Source: Eledone cirrhosa (taxonomy: Eukaryota). From it: 64,000 bases of DNA. Below the pieces are notes generated by a model. That model did no database searches. It had not been told where the DNA came from and was given only the letters and a program-made list of their open reading frames with translations. The translations under genes and the position numbers were made by a program. The stretch lies in contig OZ024740.1 of NCBI GenBank assembly GCA_964016885.1, positions 208,010,001 through 208,074,000 on the forward strand. The letters run 5' to 3'. Below, piece by piece: positions 43,913 through 44,824 of this stretch (positions within the stretch are counted from its first letter, which is position 1; each line of letters begins with the position of its first letter).

Positions 43913-44263
43913 AAATATATATATATATATATATATATATATATATATATATATATATATATATATATATATATATATATATATATATATATATATATAT
44001 ATATATATATATATATATCTAATTGTAATACGTGACGTATTCTATTCTATAGCGATTAGGTCTTCAAAATGTTTATTATAAACATACAGAATATTTTCGA
44101 ATATTCTATGTCTATATTCACATATATATCGCTATTTCAGAGCATTTATTCTAATTTCTAATTTCTGCCGGACCGGCAACCGCTCTTTCAAACCAGTTCA
44201 TGTACACAGCTAAGTATTCTATAAGTCTCTAGCTGTGTCATTCTCGATAAAAGCACTGGATAT

Positions 44264-44306
44264 GTAGTCCTGAAGATTTCTAATAAGAATGAAACGCGTA
44301 GATTAC
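44264..44306 (+). ncRNA. Minimal type I hammerhead, unit 1
   Basis: guaguc-CUGAAGA-uuucu[aaua]agaau-GAAA-CGCG-UA-gauuac. Stem I is extended by a 16-bp helix (44240-44255 / 44313-44328). Confidence 0.9.
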
Positions 44307-44573
44307 TTCCCTTGCTTTTATCGAGAATCTAATTGTAATACGTGACGTATTCTATTCTATAGCGATTAGGTCTTCAAAATGTTTATTATAAACATACAGA
44401 ATATTTTCGAATATTCTATGTCTATATTCACATATATATCGCTATTTCAGAGCATTTATTCTAATTTCTAATTTCTGCCGGACCGGCAACCGCTCTTTCA
44501 AACCAGTTCATGTACACAGCTAAGTATTCTATAAGTCTCTAGCTGTGTCATTCTCGATAAAAGCACTGGATAT

Positions 44574-44616
44574 GTAGTCCTGAAGATTTCTAATAAGAAT
44601 GAAACGCGTAGATTAC
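44574..44616 (+). ncRNA. Minimal type I hammerhead, unit 2
   Basis: Identical to 44264-44306. Confidence 0.9.
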
Positions 44617-44824
44617 TTCCCTTGCTTTTATCGAGAATCTAATTGTAATACGTGACGTATTCTATTCTATAGCGATTAGGTCTTCAAAATGTTTATTATA
44701 AACATACAGAATATTTTCGAATATTCTATGTCTATATTCACATATATATATATATATATATATATATATATATATATATATACATTATGTTAATAAATGG
44801 AAACTATATTTATAAAACCATAAT

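Follow-up and report, generated by a model that had tools for sequence, protein, structure and literature searches.

Non-LTR retrozymes of metazoans, known from the axolotl/newt satellite Rtz331, Rtz353 and repeats of mussels and corals, consist of tandem 150–450 bp units with low GC, no ORF and a canonical type I hammerhead ribozyme, and PLEs have been called a 'strong candidate' for their mobilisation (Cervera and de la Pena 2020, PMC7229834). Li et al. already argue that animal retrozymes are non-autonomous PLE derivatives, and state that the evidence on the retrozyme life cycle is limited (bioRxiv 10.64898/2026.07.22.740005). The Xenopus retrozymes of that study are tandem type I hammerhead units (amphibian mean near 316 bp) that co-occur with PLEs, and eight of nine predicted retrozyme dimers failed to cleave in vitro. 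For PLEs, an inverted truncated copy, a 30–40 bp tail on one end and (TA)n targets have been described (Craig et al. 2021, bioRxiv 10.1101/2021.04.23.441226). A PLE protein has been shown to nick AT-rich DNA on both strands and to begin reverse transcription at two internal sites of the RNA, the spacing of which corresponds to the tail (Frangieh et al. 2024, PMC11167929). PLE mobilisation and a circular template are standing hypotheses for animal retrozymes, and the 310-bp family described here supports both from genome anatomy.

We analysed a 64,000-nt stretch of the Eledone cirrhosa genome (hereafter, the window). A retrozyme array of identical 310-bp units was located at 44017–44749 (+), with a period of 310, 2.4 copies, 100% matches and a score of 1466 in Tandem Repeats Finder. 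Identity at an offset of 310 ran from 44017 over 423 bases with zero mismatches, giving an array of 733 bp, or 2.36 units, arranged as a single non-inverted arm. An earlier note on this DNA had described about 2.3 identical head-to-tail units inside (TA)n, which agrees with these values; its start at 44017 was retained, but its end at 44745 falls within TA ambiguity and was moved to 44749. The array is flanked by (TA)n target tracts at 43915–44016 and 44750–44782 (the runs themselves were called at 43915–44018 and 44742–44782, overlapping the array by TA ambiguity), and a target-site duplication is undefinable because the array ends sit in (TA)n. With phase 1 set at base 44301, directly after the first predicted cut, the 5′ end lies at phase 27 and the 3′ end at the short site of the family (phase 127–139). 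The predicted cut-to-cut monomer, or circle, spans 44301–44610 (+) and has 310 nt and a GC content of 33%, below 50%. The longest Met-started frames on the circle had 30 aa (+) and 17 aa (−), and the longest stop-free stretch had 46 codons, consistent with the earlier statement that the repeat contains no ORF. Both units carry T at phase 162 (44152 and 44462, +) in place of the C found in most of the family; this private base occurred in eight units genome-wide, four of which fill one other array. The tail segment (phase 140–172; 44440–44472, +), which lies between the two 3′ end sites of the family, is internal in this array and terminal on one arm at inverted loci. Judged by its sequence, the array represents a single insertion of a non-LTR retrozyme, a young non-coding family of 310-bp hammerhead tandem repeats that is dispersed in the genome.

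Each full unit contains an intact type I hammerhead with a palindromic stem III, as claimed in the earlier note, and motif, predicted fold and covariation agree on this assignment. The first hammerhead (44240–44328, +; predicted cut after 44300) consists of a 6-bp stem I (44264–44269/44301–44306), the core CUGAAGA (44270–44276), a stem II in which a U.U pair is followed by 4 bp with an AAUA loop, GAAA, and a palindromic helix III (44294–44299) in which a palindromic tetraloop caps a single pair, with the cut predicted after GUA. The proposed 16-bp extension of stem I was recovered as a perfect reverse complement (44240–44255/44313–44328, +). The second hammerhead (44550–44638, +; predicted cut after 44610) is identical to the first: CUGAAGA occurs at 44270 and 44580, and GAAACGCGUA ends at 44300 and 44610, so that the predicted cuts would release the 310-nt monomer described previously. 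The term 'minimal HHR' used earlier is wrong. By the definitions of PMC4209133, a helix I of 6 bp, a helix II of 4 bp, a helix III of 1–2 bp and a palindromic loop make a canonical metazoan type I hammerhead, which, unlike the minimal form, requires a second copy for activity. Nor does the ribozyme match the min-HHR of PLE pLTRs, which has no helix III or loop 3 past the conserved bases, since helix III here has a palindromic tetraloop. Rfam at gathering score returned zero hammerheads in the window and a weak HH9 match on the second copy only (17 bits versus a cut-off of 52, E 0.35); the ribozyme call is based on motif, fold and covariation.

For 44240–44630, the fold predicted without constraints was a double hammerhead in which 6 bp join the two palindromes (−95.9 versus −77.2 kcal/mol for two single ribozymes), and the monomer ends were predicted to pair via stem I and its extension. 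The predicted circular fold had an energy of −68.9 kcal/mol (z −4.6 versus 200 dinucleotide shuffles). In an alignment of 27 family and sister sequences, one of them without its 3′ part, 89% of cells paired, and 14 of 29 pairs changed on both sides, including C3-G8 to U3-A8. Pairing dropped to 35–54% in slid controls, which ignore relatedness and use a structure derived from one of the aligned sequences. The older sister sequences have U3-A8 in place of C3-G8, a variant known from Cercyon PLEs (PMC4209133), and one young haplotype differs at tolerated ribozyme positions only, its U.U becoming A-U. A search of the unit for a minus-strand hammerhead found none; the ribozyme was seen on one strand only.

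The 43-base ribozyme had 1,361 exact copies in the animal's own genome (3.0 Gb), compared with 0 for a reversed control. We examined 37 loci, comprising the window, 22 loci from a DNA search (the top-scoring ones, biased toward the window's haplotype), the first 11 ribozyme matches listed and 3 loci found by the private base. Haplotype frequencies are biased, because 20 of the 37 had been selected for their resemblance to the window unit and 3 for carrying its private base; the sampling also favoured full 310-bp matches. These loci, spread over at least 10 contigs, comprised 68 arms with a total of 358 unit-lengths. All 36 other loci were tandem rather than monomeric, with up to 27 units per arm, and no LTR structure was present at any of the 37. 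Only 43 singleton differences were counted in 109,380 bases, including any copying and assembly errors; the burst is therefore very recent, in agreement with the youth ascribed to the element before. An older array, L109 (92–94% identity), was excluded from the 37, and sister subfamilies occurred at 68–80% identity (163 and 142 pattern matches, the latter for one pattern with the U3-A8 hammerhead core). Together, the old array and the sister subfamilies indicate a long history of the family in this genome.

The 310-bp family resembles described metazoan non-LTR retrozymes in all the features listed at the outset, and its helix III, a single pair with a palindromic tetraloop, is that of HHR_Amex1, while the U.U at the base of stem II is that of HHR_Amex2 (PMC7229834). 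A self-paired circle, here predicted from sequence alone, is also common to both. In contrast to those retrozymes, the present family has a cephalopod host, is far younger and more uniform, and shows inverted two-arm insertions with a tail. The word 'tail' is absent from the main texts of bioRxiv 10.64898/2026.07.22.740005, PMC7229834 and the review PMC7761336, in which 'inverted' appears in the reference lists at most. The main text of PMC7229834 yielded zero matches for cephalopod, octopus and squid, and no report of a cephalopod retrozyme was found in the literature searched, but supplements and subscription papers may contain such a report or mention such insertions. By its sequence-level features, the family is assigned to the non-LTR retrozymes, a known kind of element.

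Viroids and viroid-like RNAs are by definition without a DNA phase and often carry ribozymes in both polarities. Like these circular RNAs, the 310-bp family has a small, self-paired, non-coding circle (predicted here) with a hammerhead; it differs in having 1,361 genomic copies, a ribozyme on one strand only and a much lower GC content. A viroid-like autonomous RNA replicon was rejected on the basis of the genomic copies and the lack of a minus-strand hammerhead in the unit, and the spread of the family is, unlike that of viroids, explained by retrotransposition.

At 29 of the 37 loci, two inverted arms were joined 5′-to-5′ with their 3′ ends outward; the remaining 8, including the window, were single-armed, one of them adjoining an assembly gap and another bearing an inverted stub under the length cut. 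The 3′ ends fell into two sites in 67 of 68 cases, at phase 125–139 (short) or 165–172 (tailed), and 29 of 30 arm pairs combined one short and one tailed end (the exception being L137), with the tailed arm running about 30–40 nt past the short one. Two of these 30 pairs come from L128, apparently one duplicated locus; under independent choice of ends, 28 such loci would be expected with a probability of about 0.5^28. The older sisters, as judged by eye, end at the same two 3′ sites. Most 3′ ends (63/68) continued into TA repeats. The 5′ ends were spread over all phases, indistinguishable from uniform (KS p 0.27, n = 68), and only one of the 68 lay at the cut site; we rejected templates that end at the ribozyme's cut site, where 5′ ends showed no accumulation. 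The circularly permuted start points sought after the earlier note were thus found for the 5′ ends, but not for the 3′ ends, which are fixed at two sites. Arm lengths ranged from 82 to 8,459 bases (0.26 to 27 units; mean 1.6 kb), fitted an exponential (KS p 0.17) and were uncorrelated between the two arms of a locus (Spearman 0.12). Fold-back copying of the first cDNA was rejected as a general source of the second arm, because either arm may be longer (the tailed one in 16 of 29 pairs) and singletons are unshared.

Since the inverted arms, the tail and the (TA)n targets match the described PLE anatomy, mobilisation of the 310-bp family by a PLE enzyme is strongly supported, in line with the copying by PLE machinery proposed earlier. 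The likeness to endonuclease-positive PLEs (Neptune, Poseidon and Naiad) covers the inverted, 5′-truncated arm, the 30–40 nt tail at one end, the (TA)n or AT-rich targets, the internal RT start and the position of the hammerhead upstream of the 3′ end; the differences are that the 310-bp family is without an RT or GIY-YIG frame and is purely tandem, with up to 27 units. In Xenopus, the link to PLEs consists of pLTR homology and co-occurrence (bioRxiv 10.64898/2026.07.22.740005), whereas here it consists of insertion anatomy, and pLTR homology was sought but not found. The family is young enough to retain its insertion scars. These support PLE mobilisation directly and unusually clearly at the genomic level, and they place the two predicted starts of reverse transcription at phase about 130 and 165 of the 310-nt RNA.

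Two neighbouring observations concern insertion structure. At L128, the same retrozyme insertion occurs in duplicate next to an N gap and with numerous one-base indels; this is probably an assembly duplication. Within the window, an inverted-repeat element at 43240–43915, with arms 93–98% complementary and unequal ends, lies between (TA)n tracts and has relatives at 52104–52349, L047 and L104; it resembles a further inverted insertion of PLE type in the TA landing tract that the array also occupies.

The haplotypes of the units bear on the template. A single haplotype was carried by 27 of 32 loci with at least two whole monomers, and 278 of 286 monomers had the majority haplotype of their locus (mean 175 and maximum 182 in 2,000 shuffles); 7 different majority haplotypes occurred among the 10 multi-monomer loci that had entered the sample by routes other than resemblance to the window. 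Multi-change haplotypes filled both arms at L127, L129, L130, L133 and L138. Haplotype changes were stepwise (210C, then 284T/287A/294C, then 211A/127C), each step filling whole arrays, both arms included. This pattern requires a bottleneck of one unit, after which a single molecule is copied again and again, as would happen on a circle. Singletons in paired arm stretches were common to both arms in 0 of 21 cases, a weak indication. One odd unit each at L041, L128, L136 and L138, and two repeated singletons at L124, speak against a circle. Taken with the 5′ ends, these haplotypes make it likely that a circular 310-nt RNA was the main template. The joint reading, to which we give a probability of roughly 0.72, is that the window holds a young retrozyme insertion for which a PLE enzyme likely copied a likely circular RNA monomer into a (TA)n tract.

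Under this reading, read-through array RNA would fold as a double hammerhead and be cut into 310-nt monomers, the ends of which would be held by stem I and its extension and then joined, by a host RtcB-type ligase if the case is like those of axolotl and mussel. A PLE RT/GIY-YIG protein would nick a (TA)n tract on both strands, and reverse transcription would start inside the RNA at two sites about 30–40 nt apart. Each cDNA would then run round the circle until drop-off, giving arms of 1.6 kb on average and 8.5 kb at most, and the joining of the two cDNA 5′ ends would produce inverted arms, the window copy being the minority single-arm case. The family lends itself well to testing how animal retrozymes are likely to spread: the haplotype-per-insertion record could decide between circular and linear templates by genome typing alone, and the 310-nt unit is a compact substrate for in vitro rolling-circle TPRT.

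An alternative in which the family is PLE-mobilised, but mostly from uncut, linear, multimeric read-through RNA, with circles as by-products and uniformity inherited from donors, is unlikely but accounts for part of the data. At L131, both arms open with two plain units, after which variant units come in identical order; a linear or multi-unit template, or subsequent conversion, accounts better for this arrangement. The anole PLE prefers unprocessed RNA in vitro and does not need the ribozyme (PMC11167929), and random 5′ ends fit a linear template equally well. However, the stepwise changes that reach every unit of an array need a one-unit bottleneck, linear copying only shortens arrays whereas arms reach 27 units, and the arms shared none of the 21 singletons. 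Growth in place, in which PLE-type insertions of 1–2 units later became minisatellites by unequal crossover, a route proposed in bioRxiv 10.64898/2026.07.22.740005, would also yield uniform arrays, and two singletons repeated in separate units at L124 fit it. It is nevertheless very improbable, as arm lengths form a continuum from 0.26 to 27 units with an exponential-like distribution and are uncorrelated within loci, singletons are almost never in blocks, and dozens of loci would have to enlarge both arms before even 0.04% divergence.

We consider it highly unlikely that the 310-bp repeat is merely the truncated terminal repeat (pLTR) of an unsampled autonomous PLE. The tail, the inversion and the TA target are features of PLE ends, and the preference of the sampling for full 310-bp matches would favour such a reading, but the 358 unit-lengths at the 37 loci run head-to-tail and never continue into a PLE body, no frame there exceeds 46 codons, and the RT plus GIY-YIG frames of an autonomous PLE are lacking at all 37. 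In addition, no RT or GIY-YIG match was found within 1.5 kb of 30 older-sister ribozymes. Assembly duplication of one unit at the window locus, suggested by the 100% identity of the units, has a negligible chance of being correct, given the unit-specific differences in arrays at many other loci and the head-to-tail joint present in contigs from three of the four public runs examined below.

A PLE-mobilised element would have an autonomous partner that shares its terminal region. A total of 10,595 GIY-YIG candidates were found (150 scored), long RT and GIY-YIG frames were present, and the named animal relatives of a resident PLE protein were bivalves (about 46–51% identity). None of 52 PLE-related loci was an autonomous PLE with the 3′ module of the retrozyme. 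A loose-end motif from public-run contigs was rejected as a PLE lead, being an older non-coding sister subfamily instead, and two other matches, in L102 and close to a PLE in L064, were separate sister insertions. The window itself contains a young PLE copy at 28743–32910, with a GIY-YIG-like frame end at about 28743–29314; its 2.6-kb TA/TG 'microsatellite' (29547–32180) is the 3′ untranslated region and recurs in other copies, a hammerhead lies at 32780, and the copy ends in (TA)n. This PLE family comprised 1,323 candidates that were 99–100% alike, with TA targets and inverted copies with a 67-base tail, and its short ends also occur at 20479–20669 and 48358–48475. It had 25 of 28 bases of the ribozyme core and stem II in common with the retrozyme, but no likeness downstream of the core (z 0.8). 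The resemblance of the young retrozyme family's C3-G8 core and stem II to those of the young PLE suggests a ribozyme core swap, and the young PLE family is a candidate partner or core donor.

Several related repeats were observed alongside. An old inverted copy of the 3′ module of a sister subfamily, 77–87% like the retrozyme unit, lies in the window at 42354–42607. The U3-A8 core was shared by many older sisters and by one or more autonomous PLE families (L139–L168, L039:8162–9270, L083 and L094). Remoter families that resemble the retrozyme, in tandem or inverted form, have intact hammerheads of their own at L102:4970–5701 (−), L064:2425–2880 and L123:1674.

Near-identical units occurred in 20 public runs from 18 organism labels and 17 studies, which contained part of the array's words, in 15 of the runs at least half of them; none of the listed runs was recorded as RNA. 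The four runs examined all covered the unit (26–29 of 29 bins) and had C both at phase 162, where it is the common base, and at phase 210; two of them contained the unit as a single closed 340-base contig, and one had TA junctions and very high depth. That the 310-nt circle is now crossing species, in horizontal RNA-level movement among marine animals, is very unlikely, but would, if true, make the retrozyme a bridge to viroid-like agents. Transfer is a less likely source of these units than cross-contamination, diet or close relatives, because old sister lineages exist in the genome and the mismatch counts of the run contigs equal those of haplotypes in the animal's own genome (counts were compared, not individual differences). 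In the own genome, 150 of 255 protocadherin candidates were scored, giving at least 121 matches arranged as long tandem clusters, and such long clusters fit coleoid cephalopods or vertebrates (PMC9068888). Combined with the bivalve relatives of a resident PLE protein, they make a cephalopod host likely, as the earlier note had proposed.

The window also contains further type I hammerhead motifs of other families at 28219, 35417 (−), 39088, 44882 (−), 57252 (−) and 57585 (−), of which the one at 44882 (−) adjoins the 3′ TA tract of the array. A broken transposase remnant at about 45130–45830 (−), which we take to be mariner-like from motifs in its translation, had zero Pfam matches in the two frames searched. 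A tRNA-like head at the Rfam cut-off (57860–57917) is probably a SINE, and a 40-bp minisatellite with 59 copies and 90% matches (Tandem Repeats Finder) occupies 8663–11018.
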